From a virus, in the IMG/VR virus record IMGVR_UViG_3300034025_000120, positions 1 to 64,000 of that record: a stretch of DNA of 64,000 nucleotides. One strand, written 5' to 3'. The notes below the pieces were generated by a model. The model had not been told where the DNA came from and did no database searches. It was given only the letters and a program-made list of their open reading frames with translations. This document shows, piece by piece, positions 17,976 through 56,506 of this stretch. Position numbers and translations under genes: made by a program. Within the stretch, counting starts at the first letter, position 1, and every line of letters starts with the position of its first letter.

Positions 17976-18058
17976 TACATGAGTCAGCGACAATAAAGTC
18001 GCCTGCTCTAACGTTTGTTTGCGCAAACATCATCGTTAATTAAAAAGAGGAAATAGAA

Positions 18059-21407: not shown

Positions 21408-22807
21408 AAAGTAACAACATTGCCATCGCTAAACTTCTTTAACTGTCTGGAACACCCTGAGAGTCTTGTCAACCACAACGCGGTGCGAAAGCACGATCGT
21501 GACGGTTTGAAAATGACAAGGATTGGGAAACCAGCAGCCAAGCCTCTGTTAAATGAGGAAGGTTCAACGACTATCGAAACCACCCGCAAGGGACAAGGGA
21601 GTAGAGTAGGGTACCAAGCGGACCCGAAACGGGAAGCACTCTTAACAGAGTGAAGATATAGTCTCAACCGGTATGAGAGTATCGGAAGTCATTGTCTGGA
21701 CCACAATGACGGCTAGGGTAGCGCCTAGTAGCTTCTACTAACTTAAAGGAGAGTAATGAATAGAAAACACATTCCAGGAACCACTGGCTTTCAAGCCGAC
21801 AGAGATGGCAACATCTACGATGCATTTGGTAGGAAACGCAATACCTACTTAAATGGGGACGGATACGTTACTGCATCGGTTTATACTAACGACGGTCGTT
21901 GGGTAACTTTCGGTGTACATCGGCTGGTGGCATTAGCGTGGTTGGGCGATAAGCGCGGTCCTGGGTGTGATGAAGTCAATCACCGGGATGGTGATATCAA
22001 GAATAACCGAGTTGAGAATTTAGAATGGGTAACATCCAGTCAGAATAACATCCATTCCGAAATCATGAGACGCTGCAACATTTACCCCACGCTCATGGTG
22101 GAATCAAATGGTGTTGTTAGATTGGCCAACGATGCTTGGGAAGCGCAAAGTTTCACAGGTGTCAGTGCACTAGACATTTGGGACGCCATTAAGGATGGAA
22201 CGGTGGTGCAGGGATTTAAGTTCACGCATTTTCCATACCGGACGAATATCCCAGCGCAGTTACATAAGCCCAAATTAGGTCAGCGCGATGTAAATGGCAG
22301 AATGATCGAACGGGCTATCAAGACGTTGGATATTGATACCGGTGAGATCGAAGTGTTCACTTCGTTTGCTAAAGCGGCTGCTAGATACAATACCACTGCT
22401 AGTCAATTGCATCTTGCCATTCCGCGACGTGGCGAAGTGCGGGTGTTTAGAAAGAAATACCAAGTCGAGTACATGGATCAAGATTTTCCAGAGATGACTC
22501 TGGAAGAACTGGCTCGTGCAAAGAATCGCGGACCACGGTCTGTACTGGCGTATAACACCGTCACAAAGAAGTATTCGATTTACGAGAGCGCCAAAAGTTT
22601 CATTGCTGCAAATGAATTAAGTAAGAAAGCAGTAACCACCTCCCTTGTGAAAGGGAAGTTGCGGCAGGTCGGCGACTGGGTGGCCGTGTATGTAAATACA
22701 GAAAACACAGAAAAGCTCAAAGAGTATGTGAAAGGTCCAGCGGACACGCACTCTTCCTGACAACAGTAGAAGCGATAAAAGCACAGCAATGTGTACAATG
22801 AAATTTG
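21408..22807 (+). mobile_element. group I intron carrying an HNH homing endonuclease ORF
   Basis: The 5' exon ends in U. The exon end GAUGGU can pair with intron GCCAUC (21422-21427) to form P1 with a U.G wobble at the splice site. The conserved core element AAGATATAGTC is at 21653-21663. The last intron nucleotide is G (22807). Joining the exons restores NADFDG-D. Confidence 0.8.
21756..22760 (+). CDS. HNH homing endonuclease (NUMOD4-like N-terminus, HNH, C-terminal HTH repeats), intron-encoded
   Basis: Motifs are HIPGTTGFQADRDGNIY and HRLVALAW...VNHRDGDIKNNRVENLEWVTSSQNNIH. GGAGAG RBS. It is more AT-rich than the flanking DNA. Confidence 0.85.
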   Translation: MNRKHIPGTTGFQADRDGNIYDAFGRKRNTYLNGDGYVTASVYTNDGRWVTFGVHRLVALAWLGDKRGPGCDEVNHRDGDIKNNRVENLEWVTSSQNNIHSEIMRRCNIYPTLMVESNGVVRLANDAWEAQSFTGVSALDIWDAIKDGTVVQGFKFTHFPYRTNIPAQLHKPKLGQRDVNGRMIERAIKTLDIDTGEIEVFTSFAKAAARYNTTASQLHLAIPRRGEVRVFRKKYQVEYMDQDFPEMTLEELARAKNRGPRSVLAYNTVTKKYSIYESAKSFIAANELSKKAVTTSLVKGKLRQVGDWVAVYVNTENTEKLKEYVKGPADTHSS

Positions 22808-32789: not shown

Positions 32790-32867
32790 TAAGTGTAGTA
32801 GAACCACGAATTGGTATCATACAAAGAGTTTGTTGTTATAACACGAACGAAAAGGAAGACAACGAAA

Positions 32868-34091
32868 ATGCCATATGGACAAAATCCATCAGCACTGTAT
32901 CTAATCAAGCACGAACCCAACGAACTGCGGCGTGAGTTCTTGGGCGTATGCGCGCTTAATCCTTGGTTCGCCCACGATTCTTCGCCACGCCAGCAAATGT
33001 TTGCCAGCCACTTAGGGCAAGCACTGGTGTTCAAAGGAATCGGTCGCCGGTATTTCCAAACCGGCATGGAAAGGGAATACGGTAAATACACCTTCTCGGT
33101 CAAGATGCCCACCACAGGGGATGTCATCAAGATCGTTGAACGGTATCGTCGTGGCGTGAGTGCCAGTTCCATCAACCCACCCAAGTCACCCCAAACGATC
33201 CTCATCTACGAGGATTACCAAACCAAGGAAATCGGCTGCATCGATTTGCCGACGCATACTTCGAATCACCCGTATTTTGGTTTTGAATACCAAAGCACCG
33301 ACGCACTGCAAGACTTGATGTGCGGGAAGAAATCGTTTACCGAAGGCCAGATTTTCCTGGATTCTCCTGCAAAGGATAAGAATGGTAACTATGGCTTTGG
33401 CATGGAAACCCCGATCGCTTTCCTCTCGCTACCCGAAACATCGGAAGATAGCGTCTTGGTGTCTGAAGACCTGTTGCCGTTGCTGAAGTTCAAGGTCACC
33501 GAGCGGCGCACCGTGGAATGCGGCCGCGATGCGTTCCCGAAAGGGATGTTCAATTACATCGATGCCAGCGGCAAAGAAGTTTTCAAACCGTTTCCCGAAA
33601 TTGGCGAGTACATCCGCGAAGACGGGCTGGTCATGGCCACGACCCGGTACAACGAGAAGTCGGCGTTGTTTGAAATGGGGATCAACGATGTCAAGACCTT
33701 GAACATTCCGTTCGACCTGCCCTGCTACGCCACCGCGGGCAAAGGCAAGATCGTCGACATCAAAATCTGGCATGACCCGTACAACACGTCCGGGTTAATT
33801 CCTTTTGGCATGGAAGACATGTTCAAGAAGTACGATGGCGGCATGCGCGCCTTCTACTTGGAAATCTATCAGGAGTGGAAACGCTTGCACCGCCAACGCG
33901 GCGCAGCCTTGAAACTCAGCCCTGCCTTTAGTGCTTTGGTCGAAGAAGCCATCGCCATGGTGGGTGAGCACAAAGAACGGATTCACATGCATCGCCGGCG
34001 CAAACCGCTGGATGACTACACGATTGAATTTACGATCGAGTACGACGTGGTCCCGACCGAAGGCTTCAAGCTAACTGATTGCCATGGTGGT
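32868..34091 (+). CDS. multisubunit RNAP beta subunit C-terminal half, exon 1
   Basis: SSPRQQMFASHLGQA (compare bacterial NMQRQAVP). ETSEDSVLVSE (compare FEDSILVSE). The exon ends ...KLTDCHGG inside the HGxKG motif. The ATG at 32868 follows AAGGAAG. Confidence 0.8.
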
Positions 34092-35395
34092 CGACATTAA
34101 GTGAAGATTCATCCATCTCTTTGAAAGGAGGTGGACATGGTAGAAGAGGAATTTAGAGTTGTACCTGGTTATAAAGAATTCAGTGTAAGCAATGATGGAA
34201 TTGTTAAGTTATCGGAAGATAACTCGATAGTTACTTTGTACAGCACTGGAGGTTATTGGACATTTAGCTTACCCAGTAACTATTCAGGATCGACGTTGTC
34301 AGTGCATAGAGCTGTAGCATTGGCATGGGTAGCAAATCCTAATCCAAGTGAATTTAACATCGTCAATCATCTTGACGCTAACCCTGCCAATAATTGGTGG
34401 GGAAACTTGGAATGGACAACCTATTCAGGTAATAATTACCATGCTATAAACAATGGTTTAAGACCGGACAATATTCCCTGTAAAGTGCGAGACTTTATTA
34501 CAGGAGAAGTCTACGAATATAGTTCGATGGCACAAGCTGCCGAAGCCATGGGGTTGAGGAAAGATACATCCATTTATCAGTTATACCCGAAGATGTTTGG
34601 GAAACTGATCGTGAATCGTTATGAATTTAGATTTGCTAATGACTTCACGCCGTGGTTCTATGAAAGTAGAAAGTATCAGATTCGACCTGCACGCTATATG
34701 GTGATTGTTACCGATGTCGAAGAAAATACCAGGGAAATTTTCTCAAATGCGACATTGCTCAAGGAATATCAGCTGTACGATAGTCCAGGTAAGTCGATAC
34801 CAGCGTTAGCGGAACACGGGAACCAGATATATCCCCATTTGAAATTCAGTGTACGAGACAGTTATGCGGAGGAACGTTTCCGCGTGATGCGTCAAACGAA
34901 AGAAAGTCGATCAATGCCAATCAAAGCTAAAAGCGGAGAACGGACCATCGACTTTGGTTCACTGACTCAATGCGCTAACTACTTTAAAGTTGATCGATCC
35001 AGTATTACAAATCGTTTAAATAACGATAAGAATTTGGATGGATGGACCTTCACTCAGTCAGCCTCTTTAGCTAGTAATGGCTAAAGAAACTTCCTTTAAT
35101 TGACCGGAAATAACCTGAGAGCCTTGTACACCAAGCCAATACCAAAAGTATTGGTGGCCAGCGTAACGAACTGGGTATGGTAACAGAGACAAGGATTGGA
35201 GAACCGGCAGCGAAGCTCCCAACGGGAGAACGTTCAACGACTAAGACCTTACCAGTCTGTAGGATCAAGCGATCCGAAATGGGGAACACCCGAACCAGCG
35301 ATGGAGGGTGAAGACATAGTCTCGACATCCGGCTAACAGCCGGAGCTGCGCGTAATGGCGCGGGTTAGGTGTAGCGAACCTAGTTGAAGGTATCG
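34092..35395 (+). mobile_element. group I intron carrying an HNH homing endonuclease ORF (exact junctions inferred)
   Basis: The 3' part (35073-35395) shares blocks with the intron at 21408-22807: CCTGAGAG, GACAAGGATTGG, GTTCAACGACT and GTGAAGA(T/C)ATAGTCTC. The junction 34091(U)|35396, preceded by G at 35395, restores HGG-KGIICKI. I could not identify a P1 guide sequence. Confidence 0.7.
34137..35084 (+). CDS. HNH homing endonuclease, intron-encoded
   Basis: AGGAGG RBS. Motifs are FRVVPGYKEFSVSNDGIV (NUMOD4-like) and VHRAVALAW...VNHLDANPANNWWGNLEWTTYSGNNYHA. It is markedly AT-rich. Confidence 0.85.
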   Translation: MVEEEFRVVPGYKEFSVSNDGIVKLSEDNSIVTLYSTGGYWTFSLPSNYSGSTLSVHRAVALAWVANPNPSEFNIVNHLDANPANNWWGNLEWTTYSGNNYHAINNGLRPDNIPCKVRDFITGEVYEYSSMAQAAEAMGLRKDTSIYQLYPKMFGKLIVNRYEFRFANDFTPWFYESRKYQIRPARYMVIVTDVEENTREIFSNATLLKEYQLYDSPGKSIPALAEHGNQIYPHLKFSVRDSYAEERFRVMRQTKESRSMPIKAKSGERTIDFGSLTQCANYFKVDRSSITNRLNNDKNLDGWTFTQSASLASNG

Positions 35396-36331
35396 AAAGG
35401 CATTATCTGCAAGATCAGGCCAGCGCACGAAATGCCGGTGGACGAAGCAGGAAACCGGGCCATGATTGCGATGGACCCGAACTCGACTGTGTCGCGCATG
35501 AATATCGGACGGCTCTACGAGCAGTTCATGAATGCATCGCGCCGCGATACCCGCAAAGCACTGTCGGCCATGCTGGGCATCGAGCACCATGATCCAAAGG
35601 CGGTGGTCAAGGTCCATGAACTCCAGCAACGCGATCCTGCCACCTTTAACAAGGCGTGGGATTACCTGCTCGGGTTCTATAAGATCGTCTCGCCACAGCA
35701 GTACAACTGGCATGTCACCGGCGAATACCGCGATCCACCTGCGACCCATCTGGGCAAAGTGATTGCGGATGATCTGTTTGTGTTCTTGCCGACGGAGAAT
35801 GACCCAGAGTCGGAGCAAATCGTTCATGACCTGTGGAAGTATTATCCACCTACCTACGGCCCCGTGCAGTATGTGGGTAATTCCGGGAAGCTGCGTACTA
35901 CCCGCGAAAAGGTCATGATTGCTGAGATGTATGTCATGTTGCTGGAGAAGATCGGTGACGATTGGACGGCAGTGGCGTCTGGCAAGACCCAGCACTTTGC
36001 GGTGTTGTCGCAAATGACGAATGCGACCAAGTATTTGCAGCCGACACGCAATTCGCCGGTCCGGACTGACGGGGAAGCAGAGAAGCGCATCTTTGTCTCG
36101 TATTGCGGTTGGCAATTGGCATCGGAACGCCATGACCGGAATAACAACCCGGCCACGCACAAAGAAGTGACCTACTCGATTCTGACGGCCGATCGACCAA
36201 CAGACATCAAGTGCGCCGTGAACCGCAAGAAGAATCCGCTGGGCCAAGACCGTCCACTGGTCATGGTCAAGCACATGCTGCAAACCGGCGGTACCAAGGT
36301 CACCTATGAAGACGTGGGCTTTGTTCACTAA
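35396..36331 (+). CDS. RNAP beta subunit C-terminal half, exon 2
   Basis: KGIICKIRPAHEMPVDEAGNRAMIAMDPNSTVSRMNIGRLYEQ aligns by eye with bacterial KGVISKI..DMP.DE.G...DI.LNP.GVPSRMNIGQ. Confidence 0.8.
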   Translation, partial: KGIICKIRPAHEMPVDEAGNRAMIAMDPNSTVSRMNIGRLYEQFMNASRRDTRKALSAMLGIEHHDPKAVVKVHELQQRDPATFNKAWDYLLGFYKIVSPQQYNWHVTGEYRDPPATHLGKVIADDLFVFLPTENDPESEQIVHDLWKYYPPTYGPVQYVGNSGKLRTTREKVMIAEMYVMLLEKIGDDWTAVASGKTQHFAVLSQMTNATKYLQPTRNSPVRTDGEAEKRIFVSYCGWQLASERHDRNNNPATHKEVTYSILTADRPTDIKCAVNRKKNPLGQDRPLVMVKHMLQTGGTKVTYEDVGFVH

Positions 36332-36377: not shown

Positions 36378-38489
36378 ATGGCAGCATTAAAACGCATCAG
36401 TGCAAGGGCACTCTTAGATTTGTCGCAGGACTTCTTGAAAGAGAACCTGCATGGACCATTCAAACTGGTCTTCGACGACGGGCACGAAATTGTCACGAAT
36501 GCACGGGAAACGCTGTTGTCGGGCTATGGCTGGGAGTACCACCGGGAATACCGGGAAACACCCCTGCTGTACCGACACCACGTGCAGCATGTGTTAGCCG
36601 GCGGTATGTTGGACGCCGATACCCACTTAAAGCTCCTCAGTATCTGCATGTGGAGTGTGTATGACGAGTATGTCTTGCCGAATTACAAAGCACGCATGCT
36701 CGTCGCCAATACAGCAACCGAGCAGTTGGAAATGCAGGTGGTCGATGAAGTTGAGTTACGCGAACTGTTGTTTAAGCGCGCGTACGAGTTGACCAACCTC
36801 ATTTACAATGAGTTGAGTGAGCACTGCGAAGAGTATGTGGTGTCCTTGAACATCTTGGACTTCATGGAAGTCTTGGCGCACCCCAAAGTGCGCGAGATCA
36901 ACAATACCTTGCAGCCCAACCCAGCGTCAATCAACAACGCCTATAAGGTGGTGAAAGACACGCTCAGGAATGCCCCTGAACTGCAAAGAAATCCGCTGGC
37001 CAAGGCCGTGCATTCCCGTACGGTGAAAGAAGACCAGCTGATGCAGTGTCTGACAGCGCGCGGTACCTTGACGGACGTGGACTCGTATGTGTTCCGGCCA
37101 CCGGTCTTGCGTGGTTACGCCCGTGGCTTCCGAAAAGTGTATGAAGCCATGGTCGAATCGCGCTCGGCAGCAAAAAGCTTGGCGTCGTCGAAAGCGCAAT
37201 TGCAAGATGCTGAGTATTTCTCGCGGCGCTTGCAGTTGGTTGACCAAGTGGTGCAAAACCTCCACATGGCCGATTGCGGTACCACCGAGTACGCGGAGTG
37301 GTATGTCCGTGGGGAAGAAAAGGAAGCGGGCCGTACCAAGCGCAAGGCTGACCTGAAGAAGTTGGTGGGCTTGTACTACTTGACGGAGCAAGGTGAACTG
37401 CGTACGATCAAGGAAACCGATTCTCACTTGATTGGCAAGAAGATCAAGCTGCGGACGGTGCTCGGTTGTGCCCACCCTGATCCGTACGGTGTGTGCAGTA
37501 CGTGTTTCGGTGACCACTCCTTGTCGGTACCGCGTGGCTCGAACTTGGGCCACATGTGCTGTACCCACATGACGCAAAAGAGTAGTCAGTCCGTGCTGTC
37601 CTTGAAGCACTTGGACATGAGTTCGGATGTCGATGGCGTGATCATCGATTCCTTCATGCGCAAGTTTGTCCGCGCATCGGAAGACGAAAGCTCGTATGTA
37701 TTGGCCCCGGAGTTGAAACAAGCCGATGCTGTCAAGCTGATTGTGTCGCCGACCCAGGCCCGTAACTTGACGGATATCCGGAATGTGGACGAGGTCGAGA
37801 AGTTGGCCTTGACCCACGTCTCGGAGATGGAATCCATCACCATCGAGCTTACCACCCAAGGCGGTAAGCATGAAGAACCACATGTGGTCCCGGTTCGGAT
37901 GGCAAACCGCAATGCCAGCATGACCCATGAACTGCTCGACTACATCAAGATGTTCGGGTGGGCCACGGATACGGCCACGGGTAATTACGTGATCGACATG
38001 ACCAATTGGGACTGGTCATTCCCCTTCTTGACCTTGCCACCCAAGCACTTTAATATGAGCGACCATTCGGCCGCCATTGCGAAGATGCTGGAATCGACCG
38101 TGAAGGATGTCGATGAGCGGGATAGCCAAACCGATCCTGTGGAATTCTTGAAAGAGTTCCATGACCTCGTCAACGACAAGCTCGATGTGCCGTTGGCAGT
38201 GAACGCAGTGATTGTGCTCGGCGTGACAATTCGTTCGGCGAAAGACTTCGATTACCGGCTCCCCAAGCCGGGCACAGCAGTCGGCCTTGGTGTGCGGTCC
38301 AACATCATGGACTACCGCAGTGCGTCAGCAAAGTTTGCATTCCAAGGACACCGGGATTTCTTACGAAACCCCGCTATGTATTTGAAGGGTGTGAACAAGA
38401 ACCGTCCTAATCACCCGATGGACGGGGTCATTACTCCGCAAGAAGTATTGCAAGCGGAACGAAACCGGAAAGGTTGGGTCACCAACTAA
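36378..38489 (+). CDS. multisubunit RNAP beta-prime C-terminal subunit
   Basis: AGGAGGAAAG RBS. ADCGT (compare DDCGT). IKLRTVLGCAHPDPYGVCSTCFGD (compare VKVRSVVSC..FGVCAHCYGRD). Trigger-loop-like HMTQKSSQSVLSLKHLD. Confidence 0.75.
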   Translation: MAALKRISARALLDLSQDFLKENLHGPFKLVFDDGHEIVTNARETLLSGYGWEYHREYRETPLLYRHHVQHVLAGGMLDADTHLKLLSICMWSVYDEYVLPNYKARMLVANTATEQLEMQVVDEVELRELLFKRAYELTNLIYNELSEHCEEYVVSLNILDFMEVLAHPKVREINNTLQPNPASINNAYKVVKDTLRNAPELQRNPLAKAVHSRTVKEDQLMQCLTARGTLTDVDSYVFRPPVLRGYARGFRKVYEAMVESRSAAKSLASSKAQLQDAEYFSRRLQLVDQVVQNLHMADCGTTEYAEWYVRGEEKEAGRTKRKADLKKLVGLYYLTEQGELRTIKETDSHLIGKKIKLRTVLGCAHPDPYGVCSTCFGDHSLSVPRGSNLGHMCCTHMTQKSSQSVLSLKHLDMSSDVDGVIIDSFMRKFVRASEDESSYVLAPELKQADAVKLIVSPTQARNLTDIRNVDEVEKLALTHVSEMESITIELTTQGGKHEEPHVVPVRMANRNASMTHELLDYIKMFGWATDTATGNYVIDMTNWDWSFPFLTLPPKHFNMSDHSAAIAKMLESTVKDVDERDSQTDPVEFLKEFHDLVNDKLDVPLAVNAVIVLGVTIRSAKDFDYRLPKPGTAVGLGVRSNIMDYRSASAKFAFQGHRDFLRNPAMYLKGVNKNRPNHPMDGVITPQEVLQAERNRKGWVTN

Positions 38490-46276: not shown

Positions 46277-47125
46277 TTACTCCTGGGTACTGGTATCGGC
46301 TTCGACCGGCGCGAAGTTCGGATTATGGACGCTAACGGACTGGTCTTGACCGTCAGCAAAATCCACGGCCATGACTGCACCGATCGGCGCATTGATTGCC
46401 TGCTTGAAATCAGGGTTTTCGATCAGCGTCGAAATGGGAGTCAACTCGTTCTTGATGACACCGAGTTCGTCGATCGGCGTGAAGACCGAAGTTTGACCTC
46501 GTGCGGGGACGACGTCTTTGACTTCGACATCGGTGACGACGTTGACGTCTTGCACCGCAGCCGCTTCTGCTTCCTGGGTCAGCTTGATGCGGCGCGCTTC
46601 GTCGAACATCGCCGTCAGTTCCATCATCGTCTTGTCGAGGATGGTCGACGCTTTGGCTTGCCATGCACTGTAGTGCTCGGAAATTTCCATGGCCGCCAAG
46701 GTTTCGCGGTTGCCGGTGTTGTCGTTGGCGCGGTGGGCGTGCAGCGCATGGATGGCGTTCAGTTCGGCTTCGAAGCGCTTGACGTCGGCCTTGAAGATGG
46801 TGACGCGGTCGATGAACTGCTGCGGTGCGCGCATGTGGACGAGGACGCTGCGGTCGTTCATGTCGGCGATGCTGCGTAGGAACTGGACCAGGCCCATGGC
46901 GCACTGGCGGAAGATGTTTTCGATATCGTTCCACAGGTCTTTGCCGTCACCGGACAGCGCCGCCATTTCTTCTTCTTCGCTGATGCGGGCCAGTTCTTGA
47001 CGGGCCATGTCGCCCAGTGGGTCGATGTGCGGCACGGTGCGTTCGGTGGTGGCTTGCTGTGGATTGCGTGCTGCGACACGTGCTGCTTTGCGGCGGGCTT
47101 TACGGGCATCGCTCGTATTGGACAT
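46277..47125 (-). CDS. hypothetical 282-aa protein
   Basis: GC3-rich ORF. Its stop lies 5 nt upstream of the next gene start. GGAG-like RBS. Confidence 0.7.
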   Translation of the reverse strand: MSNTSDARKARRKAARVAARNPQQATTERTVPHIDPLGDMARQELARISEEEEMAALSGDGKDLWNDIENIFRQCAMGLVQFLRSIADMNDRSVLVHMRAPQQFIDRVTIFKADVKRFEAELNAIHALHAHRANDNTGNRETLAAMEISEHYSAWQAKASTILDKTMMELTAMFDEARRIKLTQEAEAAAVQDVNVVTDVEVKDVVPARGQTSVFTPIDELGVIKNELTPISTLIENPDFKQAINAPIGAVMAVDFADGQDQSVSVHNPNFAPVEADTSTQE

Positions 47126-47302
47126 GATGGCTCCAGTTATCTCAGTTTTCTTTAGGATGAACGCAAATCATCTGAATCCACTCAGTGTGAATCAGCAATT
47201 TCATTGCGGGGTTTGGGTAATGCGATCATTAAATTTCCGCACTCTCCGCTACTTTATTTACATAAACAATATTTTTCAACATATTTCCGGGAGCAACATT
47301 AC

Positions 47303-48136
47303 ATGCTCGAACTTCATCACCAGTTCATTGTGGAAAATACCACACCTGAACTCCAGGTAGCGATTACGAACGCCTACGCTATTTTAGTTACCATGGGTGC
47401 TCCTACCTTGGATGACAGCGTAGAAGAACTTATCATGCTCGATTCCACCGTGGAAACGGGCGTGACGGTTACTCGCATTGTGGAACTCATGCAGGACTTA
47501 CAACACGATATGCTGCGCCAGCATGAAGTTCGGTTGGTCGAGGGTGTGTCCTTGGCGGTGACCACCAACCTTTTGCAAGGGATTCTTTCTTTGCAGGAAT
47601 ATGAAGACATGGGCCGTCTCTACCAAATTACCACGGCTGACCAAGATGCGACCGAGACCTTTGCCCAAGCCATGGAACTCGTAACGCCTTACAATGCCGA
47701 TAACCTGTCCATTAGTTTGGAAAGCGTCGGCGGTAGCCTTATCCGCCGCATGCGTGAAATGGCTGGTACCCGCGAAGAAGAATTGGTCACCGACGAAGAA
47801 CGCATCGAGCGTGCCGGTTATGTCAGCAAGATCAACCAGTTCTGTCATTACACGCGTAGCCGCCATTACCGCATGGTTACGCTCTTGCAGTCGGGTTGGA
47901 GTGTAGGTTACCCCTATACCACCTATGCTGACAATGTTGGGCGTGAATTTGAAGGCATCTTGCCTGAACAAATTGCCAAAGAAATGATTCTGATGGCACT
48001 CGCCTCCAACGATGGTACCAAGAACCCACGGGCCGTGATCAAACCGAATTTGGAACGTTACATTGCCAGCATGAATGTGATCACCAAGGTCGATATCGAG
48101 GTGACGCGCCTGTTACAAGGATTTGAACATGGATAA
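47303..48136 (+). CDS. hypothetical protein
   Basis: ORF 47204-48136. The ATG at 47303 follows GGGAG. Confidence 0.55.
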   Translation: MLELHHQFIVENTTPELQVAITNAYAILVTMGAPTLDDSVEELIMLDSTVETGVTVTRIVELMQDLQHDMLRQHEVRLVEGVSLAVTTNLLQGILSLQEYEDMGRLYQITTADQDATETFAQAMELVTPYNADNLSISLESVGGSLIRRMREMAGTREEELVTDEERIERAGYVSKINQFCHYTRSRHYRMVTLLQSGWSVGYPYTTYADNVGREFEGILPEQIAKEMILMALASNDGTKNPRAVIKPNLERYIASMNVITKVDIEVTRLLQGFEHG

Positions 48137-49436
48137 GCGTACTTTTTTCTTGAAGGCCATGGCGGCCCAGGAATACCGCCGCCGGGCATGGGTGATTAGC
48201 GCCTTTAGCTTGATCAACGAAGGTGGTGATGCATGGAAGAAAGAACCCTATGCTTACCGCCTCGTCCAAATGCCGACTGGACATTTCTTTGTTGACCCAG
48301 ACAAGAATGGCGAATTGACCAAGATCGACGATACCAAAGCTGGTAGTGCACCTTTCTCGTTCAAGGACCGTATCCTCTTGAAGAAAGGCGACATGCCGAA
48401 TGTCTTCCAAGAGGTGGACACAAACTACGGCAATGTGTTATTGAACTACACGGTACTGGTCTATCCGTTTGGCCACAAAGTACCATTCGTGACAGGGCGC
48501 ATCAAGCCACGCCAATTGGAAAACATCGTCTTGGCACGCTTGGAAGATACACCGAAAGCTGGTGAAACACGGGACGACAAATACCTCTACGTCGATGAGT
48601 ACATCAACTTCGTCGATGCTGCCTTTGCAATGGTGGCGTACACCCAGTTATGCGTGCCAGCGGCCACCGAGAAAACCATGCAGCCTGCTGATGGTATTCA
48701 CGAATACCGCGACAAGCTCTTGGCTGAAAACAAAGACCGCCTGCATGACCCAGCGGTGATCGCCAAAATTGACGCAGCCCTCGTTCAGTATGACCGCGAA
48801 TGGCTCAAAGGTGATCCGGGTGAAAACTTCATGATTACCGATAAGTCGATGGCGATTGTGCGCAAACGCCAACACGGTATGTGGGGTGCGGAAGCGGGCC
48901 TATCAGAAAACATCAATGTGGATTTGATTCCCACATCACTAGGTGAAGGGTGGGACATCGATAAGTTCCCCCAGATGAACAATAGCCACCGCGCTGGTTC
49001 ATACAACCGGGGCGCCCAAACCATGCTCGGCGGGGAATCGGTCAAGTGGTTACTCCGTGCATCGTCGAACATCAACATCACAGTTGATGATTGCGGTACC
49101 AAGATGGGCTTGCCACTCCAAGTGGACAACGACAACATCGAGATGCTAGTGGGTTTCAGCATTGTCAGTAAACAAGGTCGAATCCGTATCCCCGATATGG
49201 ACACCGCCCGCCAATACTTGGGCAAGCGCGTCATCGTGCGTAGCCCGATGTATTGCAAGCTGACCTTGACTGACTACTGCAAATGCTGTGTGGGTGACCG
49301 CTTGGCAGCGAACCCAACCTCGGCGTCGACAGCAGTGGCCGGCTACGGAAGTGCCTTCTTGAACATTTACATGCAAGCTGGGCACGGAAAGAAGCTATCA
49401 TTGGCTAAATTCGATTGGAAGAAGGACATTTTCTGA
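48123..49436 (+). CDS. RNAP beta-prime-like fragment (second RNAP set), ending inside the trigger-loop-like motif
   Basis: DDCGT. VIVRSPMYCKLTLTDYCKCCVGDRLA. YMQAGHGKKLSLAKFD is paralogous to HMTQKSSQSVLSLKHLD of 36378-38489. The ORF stops 8 codons later. Confidence 0.65.
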   Translation: MNMDKRTFFLKAMAAQEYRRRAWVISAFSLINEGGDAWKKEPYAYRLVQMPTGHFFVDPDKNGELTKIDDTKAGSAPFSFKDRILLKKGDMPNVFQEVDTNYGNVLLNYTVLVYPFGHKVPFVTGRIKPRQLENIVLARLEDTPKAGETRDDKYLYVDEYINFVDAAFAMVAYTQLCVPAATEKTMQPADGIHEYRDKLLAENKDRLHDPAVIAKIDAALVQYDREWLKGDPGENFMITDKSMAIVRKRQHGMWGAEAGLSENINVDLIPTSLGEGWDIDKFPQMNNSHRAGSYNRGAQTMLGGESVKWLLRASSNINITVDDCGTKMGLPLQVDNDNIEMLVGFSIVSKQGRIRIPDMDTARQYLGKRVIVRSPMYCKLTLTDYCKCCVGDRLAANPTSASTAVAGYGSAFLNIYMQAGHGKKLSLAKFDWKKDIF

Positions 49437-49508
49437 TTAGTTTAGTGTAATTATTCACTTTAACCTCCCTATCTATATGTGTTAAACATTAAAATAGGGA
49501 GTTTTAAC

Positions 49509-50504
49509 GTGTCCGAAAAAATTGTCATTACTAAGCCAAAAGATTTCTACGACATTCCAGGCAATGACTTGGTGTGGATTGCTCGCGACGGTCGGTGCAT
49601 CAGAAAAGATAATGGAAAGAAAATCAAGATAACTCCGACAGGCGCGGGATATAGTGTTCTTTCTATTTATAGAAGGAATAGAAATGCTGCTAACTTTTAC
49701 CATCATCGACTGTTAGCGTTGGCCTTTCTAGAACGGCCACCACGCCACGCGGATAAGCCGTTTGAAGAATTAGAAGTCAACCACAAGGACGGTGACAAAG
49801 CCAATAATCGGTTGACGAATCTTGAATGGTGTACTCCAGAAGAAAATGTCGAACACGCCATCGCGCTCGGTTTGTACAAGCATGAATTTGTTTTGGCACG
49901 GGATATTCGAAGTAATTCCATTCGCCGCTTCATGGGGGCGCAGGGGTGCTCGGAAGCTTTTAGTACATGTCACAAGCGTATGCGCCGCCACCTGCGGTCA
50001 AAGCAGGCTGGTTACATTACGAAAGACTGGCACGTGTTTAAACTCGACGATGGATCGCCGTGGCCAGAATTGCGTGACGAGCATTATATCGAAAATGGTT
50101 GGACATACAAATTCGGTATTTGGGTAGCCACCAGTGTCGAAGTCTCGGGTAAGACCGTCATCGCATCGACCTTCCCACGACTCTGTGAAATTTTAGGCAT
50201 CTCCGCTACGGTAGCGCAGGTTACCATGCGAAATCGACCGAAGGGTACGCCATACATGAACTGGGTAATTGTGTATGATGAACTTGGTTTGGCGAATGCC
50301 GTACAGGAAGCACGTACCCATGCTGATCGTGTAATCTTTCCTCCGAAGGATGTCACTGTCAAGAATATCAATACTGGCGAGGTGCAGACTTTTGCCAGCC
50401 GTAACATCGCTGCCAGTTCTCTTGGACTTCACGCAGACAAGATTCGTTACGCCATGAAAGCCAAAGGCGGACGTATTGGCGACCTTCAGTTCACTGAAGC
50501 ATAA
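49509..50504 (+). CDS. free-standing HNH homing endonuclease
   Basis: GTG start after GGGAG. Motifs are [19 protein letters not shown] and HHRLLALAF...[28 protein letters not shown]. It is AT-rich, and no intron core motifs flank it. Confidence 0.8.
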
Positions 50505-50559
50505 GACGCTAATCTTGTGAAGCTTCCTCATTTTAACAACACGTATTAAGGACACCATC

Positions 50560-51333
50560 ATGGGTAAAGGTAATAACAACCAGCAGCGTTTCCAAGGTGC
50601 TGCGCAACCACCACAAGGACAACAAGATGAACAGCCAAAAACTTCCGGCGCGCCTATCGGTGACCACACTGCTGCTGGCGACGCTGCATCGCAATCCGAC
50701 ACCGATGTCGTTCAGTCCAGCACGGGTGATGCAGGAACTTCGCCAGCCACTGGTGTTTCCGAAGTCGGTGATCAGGCCGGCGGAAGTGACAGCGGCGCTA
50801 CGACCGAAGTGGTTGGCGCGGCGTCGCTCGTCCCAGAACACCTGACGGCGATCCACGAAGAACTGGTGGAAATCGAAACGATCGCTGCGGCTGAAATCAG
50901 CCCGTTCGCTGGCGGCCTGCTGCACAGTCTCGAAGAATATGCTGAGCTGATGAACCCACGCCGCCCAACGTCGGCGGCTGAAGGTGTCTCTTGCCAGCGC
51001 CGCCTGTTCCGTGCCCTGAAATCGATCATCAACGATCTGGATGGCAATGACTTCGATACCGTCTTCGGTAACCTCCTGGCCATGATCGAGAAGAACACCA
51101 CCGGCGCTTTCGCTGACCTGGCGATGTTCCGTCACCTCGAAGCCAAGGAACTGAACCTGGTGCCAGCCGACCGTCGCTCGTTCCGTGACATGGTGAACTT
51201 CCTCCTGAAGATCGCTCCCCTGCAATCGCGTACCACCGTGGCCCGCCAGGTCAACCTGAACGCCACCTTCGCTGGCGCTGCCTTCAGCGAAGAAGGTCGT
51301 CAACGCGTGCAGAACTATTGCCACATCGGCTAA
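50560..51333 (+). CDS. hypothetical protein with disordered acidic/Gly-rich N-terminus
   Basis: 257-aa ORF with strong GC3 bias. Confidence 0.7.
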   Translation: MGKGNNNQQRFQGAAQPPQGQQDEQPKTSGAPIGDHTAAGDAASQSDTDVVQSSTGDAGTSPATGVSEVGDQAGGSDSGATTEVVGAASLVPEHLTAIHEELVEIETIAAAEISPFAGGLLHSLEEYAELMNPRRPTSAAEGVSCQRRLFRALKSIINDLDGNDFDTVFGNLLAMIEKNTTGAFADLAMFRHLEAKELNLVPADRRSFRDMVNFLLKIAPLQSRTTVARQVNLNATFAGAAFSEEGRQRVQNYCHIG

Positions 51334-51397
51334 CTTCGAAACCCACCAGAGCCGCCTTCACCGGGCGGCTCTGTATTACGAATAGTGGAGAAAAAAC

Positions 51398-52219
51398 ATG
51401 AATGAGGCAATGCCGGCGTACTACACACGCGAATATATCCGCCAGGTGCAGATGGCGCTCAATGAAAAGCAAAAAGCAAACCTACCCTTGACCGGTGTCT
51501 TCGGTAAGGGTTGGTCGGAGTTACTGAAGGGTTTTCAAATTAATCACGGCCTGGTGCCGAGCGGTCGCTACGACGACGCTACCCGCGATGAGATAGAACC
51601 ACTCATCCACAAGAAGTATTTGCAACAACACGATTACGAAGACGCTGCACTAGTCATTGGGTGCACTCCAGAAGCCCTCCAGGCGATTTGTTTGACCTTC
51701 GCAGTAGGTACGGGCTTCATTAGCAATGGCCGCGCTCGTATCGTGTTTAACCGCGAGAAGTTTTACAAAGAACTAGGCAAGCAGCGTAGCGAAGAACAAA
51801 TCACAGAACTGGTTCGCAAACACCCGACCATCGTCTCAGCCTCTGGCGGCGGTTACCTGAGCGACGACTACGAGTACGTGCGCTTCGCTGCGGCTATCTC
51901 GGTCGATTCCTATGCTGCCATGATGGCGACGAACTGGGGTATGTTCCAATTGCCAGGTCTGAATTACCGCTTCTGTGGGTATTCAAAGATCACCGAGTTC
52001 ACGCTCGACATGCAACACTCCGAGCGGCGCCAGTTGCGTATCTTCGCTGACTTCATCAAGAATACCCCGCACCTGCTGACAGCGATCAAGGCCACTAACT
52101 GGGAACACTTCTGCCAAGCCTACTGTGGCCCTGCCTTCCAGCAATACGATTACCATACGCGCATTGCACGCCACTACCGGGAGCTGACGCGCAAGAAGCG
52201 TAGCACGATTCCCGCCTAG
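51398..52219 (+). CDS. endolysin: peptidoglycan-binding domain plus N-acetylmuramidase (DUF3380-type) domain
   Basis: LTGVFGKGWSELLKGFQINHGLVPSGRYDDATRDEI is PG_binding_1-like. ATNWGMFQLPGLNYRFCGY...SERRQLRIFADFIK...NWEHFCQAYCGPAFQQYDYHTRIARHY fits the muramidase family pattern. Confidence 0.75.
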   Translation: MNEAMPAYYTREYIRQVQMALNEKQKANLPLTGVFGKGWSELLKGFQINHGLVPSGRYDDATRDEIEPLIHKKYLQQHDYEDAALVIGCTPEALQAICLTFAVGTGFISNGRARIVFNREKFYKELGKQRSEEQITELVRKHPTIVSASGGGYLSDDYEYVRFAAAISVDSYAAMMATNWGMFQLPGLNYRFCGYSKITEFTLDMQHSERRQLRIFADFIKNTPHLLTAIKATNWEHFCQAYCGPAFQQYDYHTRIARHYRELTRKKRSTIPA

Positions 52220-52220
52220 G

Positions 52221-52269
52221 CGGCATAAAGAGAGGAGCCAAGCGCCCCTCTCTTTTTTCTTTTATGCCG
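52221..52269. terminator. bidirectional terminator, full CGGCATAAA...TTTATGCCG palindrome
   Basis: CGGCATAAAG, then AGAGAGG/CCTCTCT stem, then TTTTTTCTTTTATGCCG. It lies between convergent genes. Confidence 0.7.
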
Positions 52270-52570
52270 CAATTTCAGGTGCGCTTTCTTTGCTAAAGAC
52301 AAAATAGAAATACCACGGATTGACTTTGCATTCTTCCACCACTTGCAACTTTTGCATGATTGTCAGGTCTGGGGCGTAAGGATCAAGCCCAATCAAGGAT
52401 TTATTGTGGAACACCTCGACCGGGGGTTTCTTGAGAATCACATAGCCTGCGCCCGATAACCGTTCCAGCATCTCTGCTGGCGTAAAGCTTTGTTGGACAT
52501 CCCCGTCAGCTTGGCGTCGGTCGGGTAACACGGCGTCGCTGAACTGTTTTGGACTTAGTGCGTGGTTCAT
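52262..52570 (-). CDS. hypothetical small protein, paralog of 52581-52766
   Basis: The internal ATG of ORF 52262-52705 is used. It shares the block AEMLERLSGAGYVILKKPPV with its neighbour's ETMLDNLKQNGYFIKKPV. Confidence 0.5.
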   Translation of the reverse strand: MNHALSPKQFSDAVLPDRRQADGDVQQSFTPAEMLERLSGAGYVILKKPPVEVFHNKSLIGLDPYAPDLTIMQKLQVVEECKVNPWYFYFVFSKESAPEIAA

Positions 52571-52580
52571 TTCTGTCTTT

Positions 52581-52766
52581 CTACAGAATGTAATCCGGTG
52601 CGGGTGGCAGCTTATCGCTGGTGGGCTGGAGAATAACAGGTTTCTTGATGAAGTATCCGTTTTGCTTGAGATTATCGAGCATGGTCTCAGTCGAAAACGC
52701 GCCATAACAATCGATAGCGGGCGCGATCAGATTAAAGAAAGTTTTTTCATCGATGTCGTGTTCCAT
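52581..52766 (-). CDS. hypothetical small protein, paralog of 52262-52570
   Basis: 61-aa ORF with GAAAAGGAAAAAG upstream on the minus strand. Confidence 0.45.
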   Translation of the reverse strand: MEHDIDEKTFFNLIAPAIDCYGAFSTETMLDNLKQNGYFIKKPVILQPTSDKLPPAPDYIL

Positions 52767-52806: not shown

Positions 52807-54651
52807 TTATGCTGCGATCGCTTCTTCGACTGGGACTACTGACTGAGATGCCAACGTACTTGGGTAATAGAAGTGACCAAGTTGGATGGGTGGCAATCCT
52901 TCGTCTTCCAAGAAGGCATCCAGGAAGGCATCGAGTTCTGGTGCTTTACAGATGACCGTCATGAACTCTACCGCGTTACTGTGCCCGCCCGACAGATTGA
53001 TACCCTGTTCGCGTTGGTCTTCGTATTCCACCCCATCGATCCGGTGCAGTTCCCGTACCGTAGTGTCTTTCGAGACATTGAAGACCGCGCCGCCATTCGG
53101 GTACGAAGCCGCCACGTCCAAGTCCCCTACGTGGATATAGATGTTGGTATGACGGTTCGGCAGTTCTTTAATGATTTTCAGACCGTTCATCGCAATGTTG
53201 GCTGCTGGTAGGGTACAAATCCAGCCATCCAACTTGACACAGTACTCATCGAGTTCATGCTTCATCTCGTCCGAGGTAGTACCCAAGATAAAACCCTTGG
53301 TTTGGACGAAGAAGTGCAGGTTATCCGCCGAACAACGTGGCTGGGAGGAAAAGTCTTGGTAGTCCGATGACCCTGTCATCATCGGCAATGTCAGACGCAT
53401 ATCGTTGGTGGCTTCGTCGAGCAACTCAGGGCCAACACAGTCAAAGTTGTTATAGACGATGTAATGCAGAGGGTGCTTCGTCTGCATGTACTTGTGCCAC
53501 GCCAAGCCACCCAACTTATCGGCTTCAGGAACGGTTTTCAGCTTACCACGCTTGGCCAAGTGCTTCTTCATGATGGCATCCAAGGCGTAGCTTGGTTCAT
53601 CGGATTCAGCCCCCGTCCGAATCTTCTTGTACGCACAAGCTTGGTCAATGAAGGTAAAGCTGGCCGGGCACGCAACTGTGTGCCATTGCTCGACCCACTT
53701 TAAGGGCTTGACTTTCCCGGACGCCGTGATCATCTTGTTCTTACCCTGGATGTACTCAAAGGTGCGGTACTTCTTTGGGATGATCGGATCGCAGAAAATC
53801 TCTTCTGGTTTGACGCCTTTCTTCTGCAATTGCCAAATCACCTTTGGCATATCAAAGTTGATGTTCCAAATACCAATGATGTCGGGCTTCCATTCATGGG
53901 CACGGTGAAAGACATGCTTGATAATCGCCACCGGGTTATCGACCAACACCAATTCCCAGTTGATCTTACGCTTTTCAATGTCGTCGGCCATGTACCGTTT
54001 AAACAGTGCCATGGTGTCGTTGATGACGTCGTGGTAACCCCCCACAAAGTTCTTATCGACGGCGGTGACGATCCGGCTCCCAAATGACAAGGTCGCCATG
54101 GTGATGTCTTCCGAACCATCGAGCACATTGGTTTCCACGTCGAAGATCGCTACCGTCGATGGCGTGGTATCGAACTTGGCAAAGCGCTGTTGATACGTGC
54201 GTTTAATCAAGGTGGTCGATTTGATGTCGGCCCCGTAAATCCACGGGTTACGCATCATCGAACGCACGCCCCGGTCAATAATGCGTGGTGCTTTACTCCA
54301 CTCCTTGAAATGCGGGTTGGGTTGCATGGTCGACAAGACTTGGGCAATGGTACGGCGCATCCGGGATTGGATCGTTACGTAACGCACCAGGTTTTCTTTC
54401 TTTTCCCACTCTTTCTTTTCCAAGTGGTTTTGCTTGCCTTGCTTGGTGACGTAGAAAGCCCGTTCGTAATTCTCAACGATCACGGTGCGTGGTACCACCC
54501 GGCCATCCTTGTAGTGCACCACTTCTTTGACCATGTGGTAATCGTTCTGGGCACCGAATTGGGCATCGCAAAAGAACACATGCCGCGCTTCAATGTGGGA
54601 GATATCCTCAGGGATATTCTTCAAATAGTCGATCAGGTTTTTGATCAGCAT
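52807..54651 (-). CDS. family-B DNA polymerase, exonuclease/N-terminal polypeptide including motif A
   Basis: Exo I VAIFDVETNV. Exo II IWNINFDMPKV. Exo III YIVYNNFDCVGPELLDE. Motif A GDLDVAASYPNG. There is no DTDS motif. Confidence 0.8.
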   Translation of the reverse strand: MLIKNLIDYLKNIPEDISHIEARHVFFCDAQFGAQNDYHMVKEVVHYKDGRVVPRTVIVENYERAFYVTKQGKQNHLEKKEWEKKENLVRYVTIQSRMRRTIAQVLSTMQPNPHFKEWSKAPRIIDRGVRSMMRNPWIYGADIKSTTLIKRTYQQRFAKFDTTPSTVAIFDVETNVLDGSEDITMATLSFGSRIVTAVDKNFVGGYHDVINDTMALFKRYMADDIEKRKINWELVLVDNPVAIIKHVFHRAHEWKPDIIGIWNINFDMPKVIWQLQKKGVKPEEIFCDPIIPKKYRTFEYIQGKNKMITASGKVKPLKWVEQWHTVACPASFTFIDQACAYKKIRTGAESDEPSYALDAIMKKHLAKRGKLKTVPEADKLGGLAWHKYMQTKHPLHYIVYNNFDCVGPELLDEATNDMRLTLPMMTGSSDYQDFSSQPRCSADNLHFFVQTKGFILGTTSDEMKHELDEYCVKLDGWICTLPAANIAMNGLKIIKELPNRHTNIYIHVGDLDVAASYPNGGAVFNVSKDTTVRELHRIDGVEYEDQREQGINLSGGHSNAVEFMTVICKAPELDAFLDAFLEDEGLPPIQLGHFYYPSTLASQSVVPVEEAIAA

Positions 54652-54787
54652 AATGGCCGCTCTCTTCTTCTTCAGTGCGTAATTTGGATAATCTTTATGA
54701 GTTTCAGCTACTTTTTCGGTAACAGTACTCGGTCAGATGATCTACCGAGGTTGTTATATTTGACTTTCATGCCTTATAGCTAGAGGA

Positions 54788-56020
54788 TTGCACATGCGCC
54801 TTATTAACCCCAGCTTGGAAACGATCCAATTCCAAAGCACCCAGTTTCGTGACGAGCTGATTCTCGCCATGGAAGCCATCGATCAGCTGAGCCCATCCAA
54901 GGTACCGGACAGCGAAGAAGAGGAACGCGTCGGCCGCTTGATCAATGATTACACCCACCTCAACATCACCGTGACCTTTGGCCAACACCAGCCATCGATT
55001 CACGTGCCGGATGTGAACAAGAACAACGTCCTCATCCAGAATTACCTGCGCAATTACATCGACGGCGTCGACGGTATGGCCTTCTTGCACAAGAACGACG
55101 GCATCATGCGTGGTAGCGTCGACCTGGTGCGTGGCAAGGTGTATGGCGTGTTCGCGGAGTTCCCGGCTGTTCTGCGTATGCCACTGACCATGGTCGGGAG
55201 CAAATACACCGCCGGCCAGAAAGCCGCTATCGTGTTGCACGAAGTCGGTCACTTGCTCTACTTCTGCTACTTCATGGCGCACACTGCGAGCACCAACCAA
55301 GCCATGGCTTCGCTGTCGAAAGCCCTGGACAAATCCGGTAGCGTTGAAGAACGCGAAGTCATCATGCTCTCGGTCAAGCAAGCGCTGAAGCTGAAAGACC
55401 TCGATGAAAAGACGCTTGCCAAGTCGACTGACAAGCGCGTCATCGAAGCCGTGGTGGTGTCGGCGGTGGCCCGTGAATCGAAGAGCCAACTCGGCCGCAG
55501 CATTTACGATAGCACTAGCTGGGAATACATGGCCGACCAATACGCGGCCCGCAATGGTGCTGCCCGCGATCTGGTCTTGGCCTTGGACCAAATCTATAGC
55601 GGTGCCTGGAACATCTCGTTCCGTTCGCTGCCAGCCTTCCTCTTCATGGAAGTGGTGAAAATCTGCTCCCTGTTCATGTTGCCACCGCTGGCGGTCTTGA
55701 TGATCGCGATGGATGGCAATGACTCGCGTTACGACAAGCCGGGTGCCCGGATGCTGCGTATTCGCAGCCAGATCATCGAAAACCTGAAAGACCGCGACCT
55801 CGACAAAGAAGACGTTGTTCGACTGGAAGAAGACATCAAGGTGATCGACAACCTGCTGAAAGATGTCAACGACCGCCGCCAGTTCTTCAGCGTCCTCTGG
55901 GATACGCTGGTGCCGTCGGCCCGCAAAGACCTGAACTACACCACGCTGCAACAGGAACTCGAAGCCTTGGCCACGAATGACCTGTTCCTCAAAGCTGCCC
56001 AACTGCGCACCACCGCGTAA
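54788..56020 (+). CDS. putative Zn metallopeptidase (HExxH)
   Basis: AAIVLHEVGHLLYF. 410-aa GC3-rich ORF. Confidence 0.55.
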   Translation: MHMRLINPSLETIQFQSTQFRDELILAMEAIDQLSPSKVPDSEEEERVGRLINDYTHLNITVTFGQHQPSIHVPDVNKNNVLIQNYLRNYIDGVDGMAFLHKNDGIMRGSVDLVRGKVYGVFAEFPAVLRMPLTMVGSKYTAGQKAAIVLHEVGHLLYFCYFMAHTASTNQAMASLSKALDKSGSVEEREVIMLSVKQALKLKDLDEKTLAKSTDKRVIEAVVVSAVARESKSQLGRSIYDSTSWEYMADQYAARNGAARDLVLALDQIYSGAWNISFRSLPAFLFMEVVKICSLFMLPPLAVLMIAMDGNDSRYDKPGARMLRIRSQIIENLKDRDLDKEDVVRLEEDIKVIDNLLKDVNDRRQFFSVLWDTLVPSARKDLNYTTLQQELEALATNDLFLKAAQLRTTA

Positions 56021-56044
56021 ATACCTATCTCCTGAAAGATCACC

Positions 56045-56506
56045 ATGAAACAGTTCTACATGGACTTTGTCCAGCAAGCCCAATCCCAAGTCCCCGACGC
56101 CATGTTGCGTAGCCGGGTCGTCGCTGCTGCCGTGGCGGTGGCCATTTCGATGTCGCAGTCGCTGCCCAGTGGTGAAGTGTCCCACGCCGGTGAATACTTC
56201 ACCAACCAAGTCATGCCAGCGGCCCAGCGCATCATCTCGGAGTTCAACGAGAACCTGGTGTTCGATACCCACGCCGCCCTCATGTACACACGCCAACTCT
56301 GGCAACTGCGTTACTGGAGCGCGTTCCAGCAAATGCAATCGGTCAAGCTGGTGAACAACGATTTCTTCGGTTCGTTCACGGGCGTCAATGCCTTGATCGC
56401 CGATAACTTCCGCGTCTTCATGGGCGAGAACGCAGAAGTCGTAACGAACCTGTCGTACTTCGCGACCGACGCCATTGGTGCCCAGGCTGCCTCGGTCATC
56501 GGTTAA
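56045..56506 (+). CDS. hypothetical protein
   Basis: 153-aa GC3-rich ORF. Confidence 0.6.
   Translation: MKQFYMDFVQQAQSQVPDAMLRSRVVAAAVAVAISMSQSLPSGEVSHAGEYFTNQVMPAAQRIISEFNENLVFDTHAALMYTRQLWQLRYWSAFQQMQSVKLVNNDFFGSFTGVNALIADNFRVFMGENAEVVTNLSYFATDAIGAQAASVIG

Follow-up and report, generated by a model that had tools for sequence, protein, structure and literature searches.

Does an RNA polymerase gene that stops inside its trigger loop, immediately ahead of an HNH endonuclease gene, owe this early end to the endonuclease? The question is raised by a locus of the IMG/VR virus record IMGVR_UViG_3300034025_000120, of which positions 1–64,000 were analysed (this 64-kb stretch is called the window below). 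By its hallmark genes the window appears to be a region of a phiKZ-like jumbo phage. In it an open reading frame (ORF) of 435 amino acids (aa), related to the beta-prime subunits of RNA polymerase, terminates within the trigger loop and is followed by an HNH gene; a preliminary description of this DNA read the pair as a gene fission at, or created by, a homing-endonuclease insertion. Comparison with relatives refutes that reading: the 435-aa product is complete and is conserved where no endonuclease lies nearby. We favour, with a probability of about 0.82, two independent and ordinary features, namely a complete Mid-beta-prime subunit of the virion polymerase and a free-standing HNH cassette at the 3' end of its gene.

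The 435-aa protein appears to be a complete Mid-beta-prime subunit

The family profile phrog_2962 matches the protein from end to end (residues 1–434 against 1–432 of 433, E 4.9e-141). By tblastn, 303 GenBank phage records match it, 292 of them at a coverage of at least 80%; the annotations among these matches include "putative vRNAP beta' subunit 2" in RAY and, in a note of the PhiPA3 record, a homologue of phiKZ gp080. The nearest named relatives are Ralstonia phage RP31 and Burkholderia phage FLC9 (~49% identity, tblastn). The closest sequences are uncultivated IMG/VR contigs, 84% identical for one relative (L015) and 69% for a second (L014/L016); they belong to a set of 20 IMG/VR loci that we gathered with a 5-sequence alignment of Mid-beta-prime proteins. 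At the nucleotide level, a megablast search of the GenBank phage collection with positions 47000–52000 gave no match at all.

Translation most likely starts at ATG 48129, in an overlap with the stop codon of the preceding gene, a homologue of phiKZ gp79 (ATGGATAA). The stop codon and the frame of the ORF first delimited at 48123–49436 are thus kept, but the protein probably has 435 residues and not 437.

All members of the family examined end alike. A common C-terminal alignment column is present in 11 of 11 sequences (the 435-aa protein and ten homologues ranging from RP31 and FLC9 to EL and Bacillus phage PBS1), and 20 further homologous ORFs from IMG/VR, 434–456 aa long, have the same end point. 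A HMMER scan of 1.84 billion cluster representatives returned 1,280 matches; in the best 150 of these it reaches to within a few residues of the protein's C-terminus and a C-terminal extension is never found (0/150), the few longer proteins among these 150 being extended at the N-terminus only. The same subunit occurs in an endonuclease-free neighbourhood in phiKZ/fnug, RP31, FLC9, Xoo-sp14, EL, RAY, SPLA10, SURPRISE13 and 18 of the 20 IMG/VR relatives. Because the C-terminus is the same in every homologue examined and the family profile matches end to end, the 435-aa protein is a complete Mid-beta-prime subunit, and its end point is a character of the family.

The four Zn-binding cysteines (C322, C376, C384 and C387) and H419 are invariant in the aligned homologues, and M415 is nearly so. 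M415 and H419 belong to the stretch MQAGH of the first trigger-loop helix, encoded at 49371–49385. It is these two residues that the family conserves, and not the stretch LSLAKFD, which had been taken for the trigger-loop motif. The gene does stop soon after this stretch, as described, yet after six codons beyond "KFD" rather than eight.

The chain ends where other polymerases carry an insertion

The window contains a second, longer gene of the same kind, which encodes a 703-aa protein of the beta-prime-C type. BLASTP aligned residues 316–434 of the 435-aa protein with 294–418 of the 703-aa protein (22% identical, E 1e-4); the alignment spans DCGT, the cysteine cluster and the first trigger helix, and reaches the last residue but one of the shorter protein. 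Reciprocal PHROG family matches between the two gave E values of 2.8e-8 and 4.4e-5. The preliminary description was therefore right in seeing a second beta-prime paralog that ends inside the trigger loop. It was close, too, on the length of what the longer paralog has in addition, put at about 300 aa: 285 residues extend past the end of the alignment.

The C-terminus of Mid-beta-prime lies 16 residues after the invariant H419. The 703-aa protein is homologous to phiKZ gp74, in which the Zn-binding domain comprises C288, C341, C350 and C353, and the first trigger helix runs from T365 to V383 (PMC8287921). When the family profile was compared with the Protein Data Bank (PDB), it also matched bacterial beta-prime chains; the best match was the beta-prime-C subunit of the AR9 non-virion RNA polymerase (7S00_D), aligned up to chain residue 408 with the invariant histidine opposite "AKH" of AR9. 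In that subunit a trigger-loop insertion domain occupies residues 400–508 (PMC9209446). Since the profile aligns to residue 408 and the insertion domain spans 400–508, the Mid-beta-prime subunit stops at the trigger-loop tip, a position at which insertion domains are found in other RNA polymerases. The SI3 insertion of Escherichia coli lies at the trigger-loop tip too.

The rest of the chain is assigned to a separate protein

The split of beta-prime goes back to the ancestor of the entire phage group and is known from earlier work. In SPN3US, gp42 (431 aa) is beta-prime-M, and gp244 (240 aa; phiKZ gp176) was identified as the long-missing beta-prime-C: it is lost from the virions of a polymerase mutant, is present in all related phages and gives a weak HHpred match (PMC5105663). 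The virion polymerase is accordingly described as composed of N-, Mid- and C-beta-prime together with two beta pieces (PMC7598289), and its polypeptides in phiKZ are gp178, gp149, gp180, gp80 and gp176 (PMC7618050).

phiKZ gp176 corresponds to phrog_2926 and matches homologues in FLC9 (3e-60) and RP31 (1e-53). Searches of the window with this protein (tblastn, phmmer) gave no gp176-family gene; neither did tblastn with the protein of the nearest relative or a 41-sequence hidden Markov model (HMM) run against the six-frame ORFs (best E 0.57). On the contig of the HNH-bearing relative whose Mid-beta-prime is 69% identical, ~160 kb separate the gp176-family gene (L069) from that of Mid-beta-prime, a distance that falls to ~65 kb if the 225-kb genome forms a circle. 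The two genes are ~65–68 kb apart in RP31 and FLC9, measured across the record ends. The suggestion that a C-terminal piece is encoded outside the window holds in so far as the window lacks it; its presence elsewhere in this genome is expected from the relatives.

The HNH gene is free-standing

The HNH protein matches Pfam HNH_3 (E 6.7e-9, above the curated cut-off) and phrog_59 (E 1.4e-31). Against the PDB it aligns with I-HmuI (1U3E, E 2.1e-7) through the motif HKDG..NN..N, and NLEW...EEN lies in the catalytic region. Its most likely start codon, GTG at 49509, is preceded by the ribosome-binding site GGGAG and agrees with the orthologue of L014. This orthologue, found at the same site in L014/L016, is 66% identical, and the ORF and the catalytic motif are intact in both. 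The C-terminal ~140 residues (about 190–331) have no match among GenBank phages, where every hit covers less than 80% of the protein, and are conserved in L014 and in a more distant locus, L021; the region shows only a weak NUMOD-like match (E 0.05).

The gene is paralogous to the two other HNH genes of the window, at 34131–35084 (E 8e-13) and 21756–22760 (E 4e-14), and its GC content at third codon positions (GC3) is 0.48 against 0.58–0.69 for core genes; both its AT-richness and its kinship with the intron-borne HNH genes had been noted from the sequence. So had the lack of an intron core on either side: Rfam scans of 49200–50800 gave no intron even at E ≤ 10, while the same scans detect the cores beside the other two HNH genes. 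The HNH gene is a separate, free-standing ORF with its own start and ribosome-binding site, outside any intron or intein.

The non-virion beta-prime-N gene (20112–22760 region; phrog_2987, 1–426 of 478) is interrupted at the catalytic motif NADFDG; an Rfam group I intron occupies 21377–21685 (82.7 bits), the HNH ORF 21756–22760 comes next, and the second exon, expected to encode the last ~50 residues, was not located. The two pieces of non-virion beta-N jointly cover phrog_3295 with the HNH gene 34131–35084 between them, a layout that is also the gp71-72-73 arrangement of phiKZ; the group I intron core beside this HNH gene (35024–35343) scores 45.6 bits against an Rfam threshold of 50 (E 5.5e-10).

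A cassette and its empty site

The closest relative found, IMG/VR 3300011867_000002 (L015), has no HNH gene; besides Mid-beta-prime at 84%, its upstream gene is 75% and its endolysin 91% identical. L015 reads ...GATATCTTC TAA TCTTGTGAAG..., followed by a spacer and by ATGGGTAAAGG, the start of the downstream gene. The left block of homology between the window and L015 runs through the stop codon to 49437, and homology starts again at 50509 (right block), where the window reads C TAA TCTTGTGAAG; the blastn block 50509–50638, spacer included, is 80.7% identical to L015 4805–4944. At 50509–50522 the window has CTAATCTTGTGAAG, identical to TTC-TAA-TCTTGTGAAG of the empty site. The cassette measures ~1,076 bp (49434–50509) and is bounded by CTGAT and CTAAT.

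Next to its right boundary stands a degenerate duplicate of the polymerase gene's final ~27 nt, which is clearer in L014/L016 (GGATTATCTTCTAATCTTGTGAA). The cassette thus carries its own replacement for the last codons of the polymerase gene, whose reading frame is intact; the original stop and spacer are kept behind the HNH gene.

The distribution is patchy. The HNH gene is present in 2 of the 20 IMG/VR relatives and missing from L015 and 17 others. One of the two, L014/L016, has the same gene order as the window, the identities amounting to 69% (polymerase subunit), 66% (HNH) and 43% (downstream gene). This presence and absence among relatives, together with the separate ORF, supports the earlier view of the HNH gene as free-standing and probably mobile. 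At the same place L021 has a more distant HNH (37% identical). There, a 467-aa ORF (L021 4885–6288) follows Mid-beta-prime and apparently consists of two tandem HNH-like modules, a degenerate "FHKDANPANH..NLEW" stretch preceding the region that resembles the window HNH.

The last 33 nt before the polymerase stop, counted by eye, are ~94% identical to the HNH-bearing L016 and ~80% to the HNH-less L015, while over the whole gene the same comparison gives 70% for L016 and 76% for L015. A tract of this kind would arise if the flank moved together with the element, or if alleles with the HNH gene had protective changes in common.

A conserved hairpin over the ribosome-binding site

The leader of the HNH gene can form a hairpin (49465–49472/49494–49501) whose 3' arm contains the GGGAG ribosome-binding site. 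It folds at -14.7 kcal/mol (z -4.45), and 0 of 200 shuffled sequences folded as well. The L014 orthologue has the same hairpin (z -4.14) with one C:G to G:C double change. In T4, hairpins of this kind over the ribosome-binding site delay the translation of intron-encoded and free-standing endonuclease genes. The loop of the hairpin contains TATG at 49476–49479, as does that of L014, and TATG is the late-promoter consensus of phiKZ, overlapping the transcription start (PMC7618050).

In the intron-borne HNH gene at 34131, the ribosome-binding site (GGAGG) is likewise paired in a hairpin (34112–34135; -12.6 kcal/mol, z -2.1). For the HNH gene at 21756 no such structure was supported (z +1.27).

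A recurrent endonuclease position

In PhiPA3 a GIY-YIG homing endonuclease gene (gp078; phrog_314; L004 5444–6637) separates the homologues of gp80 and gp81, which are adjacent in phiKZ/fnug without an endonuclease gene there. No relatedness was detected between the PhiPA3 endonuclease and the window HNH. In PBS1, another endonuclease gene (PBS1_2720; phrog_559/3339, treble-clef/HNH type; L009 4199–5896) follows the Mid-beta-prime gene. Endonuclease genes directed at polymerase genes are well known from these phages: gp210 of PhiPA3 nicks gp178 of phiKZ and confers an advantage in competition (PMC11620839).

The end of the Mid-beta-prime gene may thus be a long-lived homing site, and the original fission of beta-prime may itself have been made by such an insertion, then fixed when a rearrangement moved the C-terminal piece. 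We consider this unlikely, and raise it because three unrelated endonuclease families occupy one site in three lineages and because the cassette brings replacement last codons. If true, the mechanism known from nrdA of phage Aeh1 would have acted on an essential polymerase in the ancestor of the whole phage group. That mobile introns caused these splits is an idea already raised, as cited in PMC7598289.

Weighing the explanations

A recent split of a continuous beta-prime-C-type gene by insertion of the HNH gene would make the 435-aa product an N-terminal fragment. Homing endonucleases can split genes, as mobE has split nrdA in Aeromonas phage Aeh1, and here the reading frame stops within the trigger loop, with the cassette abutting its stop codon exactly. 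However, the C-terminus is shared by all the homologues examined, whether or not an endonuclease lies nearby, the split is documented in the literature for the whole family, and the gene after HNH is a conserved, unrelated neighbour and not a second beta-prime half. L015 has the same stop and no HNH, so the HNH gene did not create the break; the probability left for a recent split is close to nil. Scarcely higher is that of an overlooked or degenerate self-splicing intron just 5' of the stop codon, whose removal would join ...ATTTT to CTAATCTTG and restore TTC-TAA. The 5-nt ambiguity of the junction allows one register in which the 5' exon ends in U and the insert in G, a requirement of group I introns, and both paralogous HNH genes of the window adjoin such introns. 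But the scans that detected these two gave nothing here, the ~77 non-coding nt of the cassette are too few for an intron core, and since the protein would be identical with or without splicing, splicing would not be under selection.

Better placed than either, though still unlikely, is a long-resident HNH domesticated for another job, such as attack on the DNA of a competitor or of the host, with a simple loss in L015. The 66% identity between the window and L014 is near that of the flanking genes, ORF and catalytic motif are intact in both, and PhiPA3 gp210 is a precedent for a competitive advantage (PMC11620839). This fits less well with an HNH gene present in just 2 of 20 relatives and atypical in codon composition, with a flank that looks co-converted, and with unrelated endonuclease genes at the same site elsewhere, four traits that mobile elements typically show. 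Domestication and mobility are compatible with each other.

Several points also weigh against our own account of a complete subunit beside a mobile cassette. The flanking direct repeat is not the trace that a clean homing by double-strand-break repair would leave, and an HNH identity of 66% between the window and L014, close to the 69% of the flanking genes, agrees equally well with repeated homing and with a long vertical residence followed by loss on the L015 branch. The protein is a predicted homing endonuclease, with a predicted target site and putative activity and mobility. TATG as a promoter is a weak hint, being a 4-mer of which ~0.12 occurrences in the loop are expected by chance. As for the rest of the chain, no similarity of the gp176 family to the C-terminal part of beta-prime was detected: hhalign against residues 395–703 of the longer paralog reached E 0.21 in an alignment of 13 columns, and the family's profile gave only chance matches to MntR in the PDB; according to the literature, gp176 is the missing beta-prime-C piece on the strength of genetics, proteomics and a weak HHpred match. 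That the genome of this phage has a gp176-family gene is likewise a deduction from its relatives.

In our account the virion beta-prime chain consists of three polypeptides, its remainder being supplied, according to the literature, by a separate ~240-aa virion protein (gp176 / SPN3US gp244 family) from a far-off gene. During co-infection the endonuclease would nick or cut HNH-less alleles at or near the junction of the polymerase 3' end and the spacer, and repair would copy the cassette with a short flank into the cut genome. Translation would be restrained by the hairpin that hides the ribosome-binding site, with a possible release in transcripts that start at the late-type TATG of the loop. 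The enzyme may in addition handicap competing relatives, as shown for PhiPA3 gp210.

Features of the locus and its neighbourhood

The coordinates are collected in Table 1. The homologue of gp79 lies directly 5' of the Mid-beta-prime gene in 16 of the 20 IMG/VR loci (tblastn) and in GenBank relatives. On the other side, homologues of the gene at 50560 directly follow Mid-beta-prime in L015 (55% identical), in L013 (E 1e-16) and in most other relatives. This gene is indeed unrelated to the polymerase, as first stated; the different codon bias attributed to it does not hold, since its GC3 of 0.63 equals that of the polymerase gene and differs from that of HNH only.

Table 1. Features of the locus and related polymerase genes in the window
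Feature	Position	Strand	Match or remark
Virion RNA polymerase Mid-beta-prime subunit (phiKZ gp80 / SPN3US gp42 family), 435 aa, predicted	48129..49436	+	phrog_2962
Last eight polymerase codons and stop (FDWKKDIF*), functional left copy of degenerate direct repeat	49410..49436	+	from alignments
AT-rich spacer (26% GC), 72-nt leader carried by cassette	49437..49508	+	
Free-standing I-HmuI-like HNH homing endonuclease gene, 331 aa, predicted	49509..50504	+	GTG start; listed ORF starts 49479
Vestigial right copy of polymerase 3' end, including ancestral TAA (50510-50512)	50485..50512	+	overlaps last HNH codons
Ancestral intergenic spacer of empty site	50513..50559	+	aligned with L015
L015-type empty site			...TTCGATTGGCAGAAGGATATCTTCTAATCTTGTGAAGATGCC...
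Upstream gene, phiKZ gp79-like	47300..48136	+	phrog_5038, E 7.6e-21
Downstream gene, no function assigned, not RNA polymerase-related	50560..51333	+	phrog_18957, E 6.3e-21
Beta-type polymerase gene, two pieces	32811-34100 and 35384-36331		both phrog_3295; HNH gene between
703-aa beta-prime-C-type gene	36378-38489		phrog_3015; helicase gene next

A scan of 47000–51500 for sigma-70 promoters and terminators gave counts not above those of shuffled sequences; host-type signals are not expected in such phages. Elsewhere in the window, 18001–20017 is high in GC (0.60–0.62), the second high-GC kilobase being 7001–8000, and contains a 652-aa ORF on the + strand that is fully overlapped by an antisense ORF of 668 aa, probably an artefact of composition. 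A 147-aa ORF at 52262–52705 (-), adjoining the DNA polymerase gene (52807–54651, phrog_3011), gives weak matches to the terminase large subunit (E ~4e-5) and may be a fragment or an exon. For the ORFs at 46277–47125 (-) and 54767–56338 (-), 282 and 523 aa long, PHROG gave no match at E ≤ 0.001.

Significance and comparison with known systems

The apparent truncation is the normal form of a subunit in a polymerase built from pieces, and annotating it as a pseudogene or as a fresh fission would be wrong. The locus also provides a clean pair of filled and empty sites, between phages whose subunits are 84% identical, for a free-standing HNH gene beside a virion polymerase gene. The predicted target is the L015-type junction ...GATATCTTC-TAA-TCTTGTGAAG..., which could be used for testing endonuclease-driven competition among jumbo phages and so extend the work on PhiPA3 gp210. 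The mildly new elements are limited to the precise filled and empty sites, the vestigial second copy of the gene end, the hairpin conserved in L014 and the repeated presence of unrelated endonucleases at this position.

With phiKZ gp80, SPN3US gp42, PhiPA3 gp077 and RAY gp270 the window protein shares the length class, the cluster of four cysteines, the M..H trigger-loop motif and the C-terminus; in the phiKZ gp80 family a gp79-like partner gene overlaps the start, as it does here. Identity with the GenBank members of the family is 24–51% only, and packaging in the virion and assembly into the early-gene polymerase are literature knowledge for phiKZ and SPN3US, the window subunit being known from its sequence. 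The non-virion beta-prime-C subunits, phiKZ gp74 and AR9 gp154 (7OGP-type and 7S00 structures), share the core from bridge helix to trigger helix, the Zn cysteines and the trigger-loop histidine. Their single chain runs on through the trigger-loop insertion domain and the second trigger helix into the C-terminal region, whereas the virion subunit ends at the trigger-loop tip and the virion enzyme, according to the literature, uses a separate polypeptide.

On the endonuclease side, I-HmuI of Bacillus phage SPO1 shares the HNH_3 motif and aligns in the N-terminal DNA-binding region; both I-HmuI and PhiPA3 gp210 are intron-encoded, whereas the window HNH is free-standing. Among the nearest GenBank relatives is phiKZ gp179, 31% identical over the N-terminal half, whose gene lies between two virion polymerase genes; the window HNH likewise adjoins a polymerase gene of a jumbo phage. 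The free-standing genes of T4-like phages (seg, mob and mobE of Aeh1) resemble it in lying between conserved genes, in their patchy distribution and atypical composition, and in a translation restrained by a hairpin. Aeh1 mobE splits nrdA, whereas the HNH gene described here leaves the adjacent gene unsplit and the break in beta-prime predates it throughout the family.

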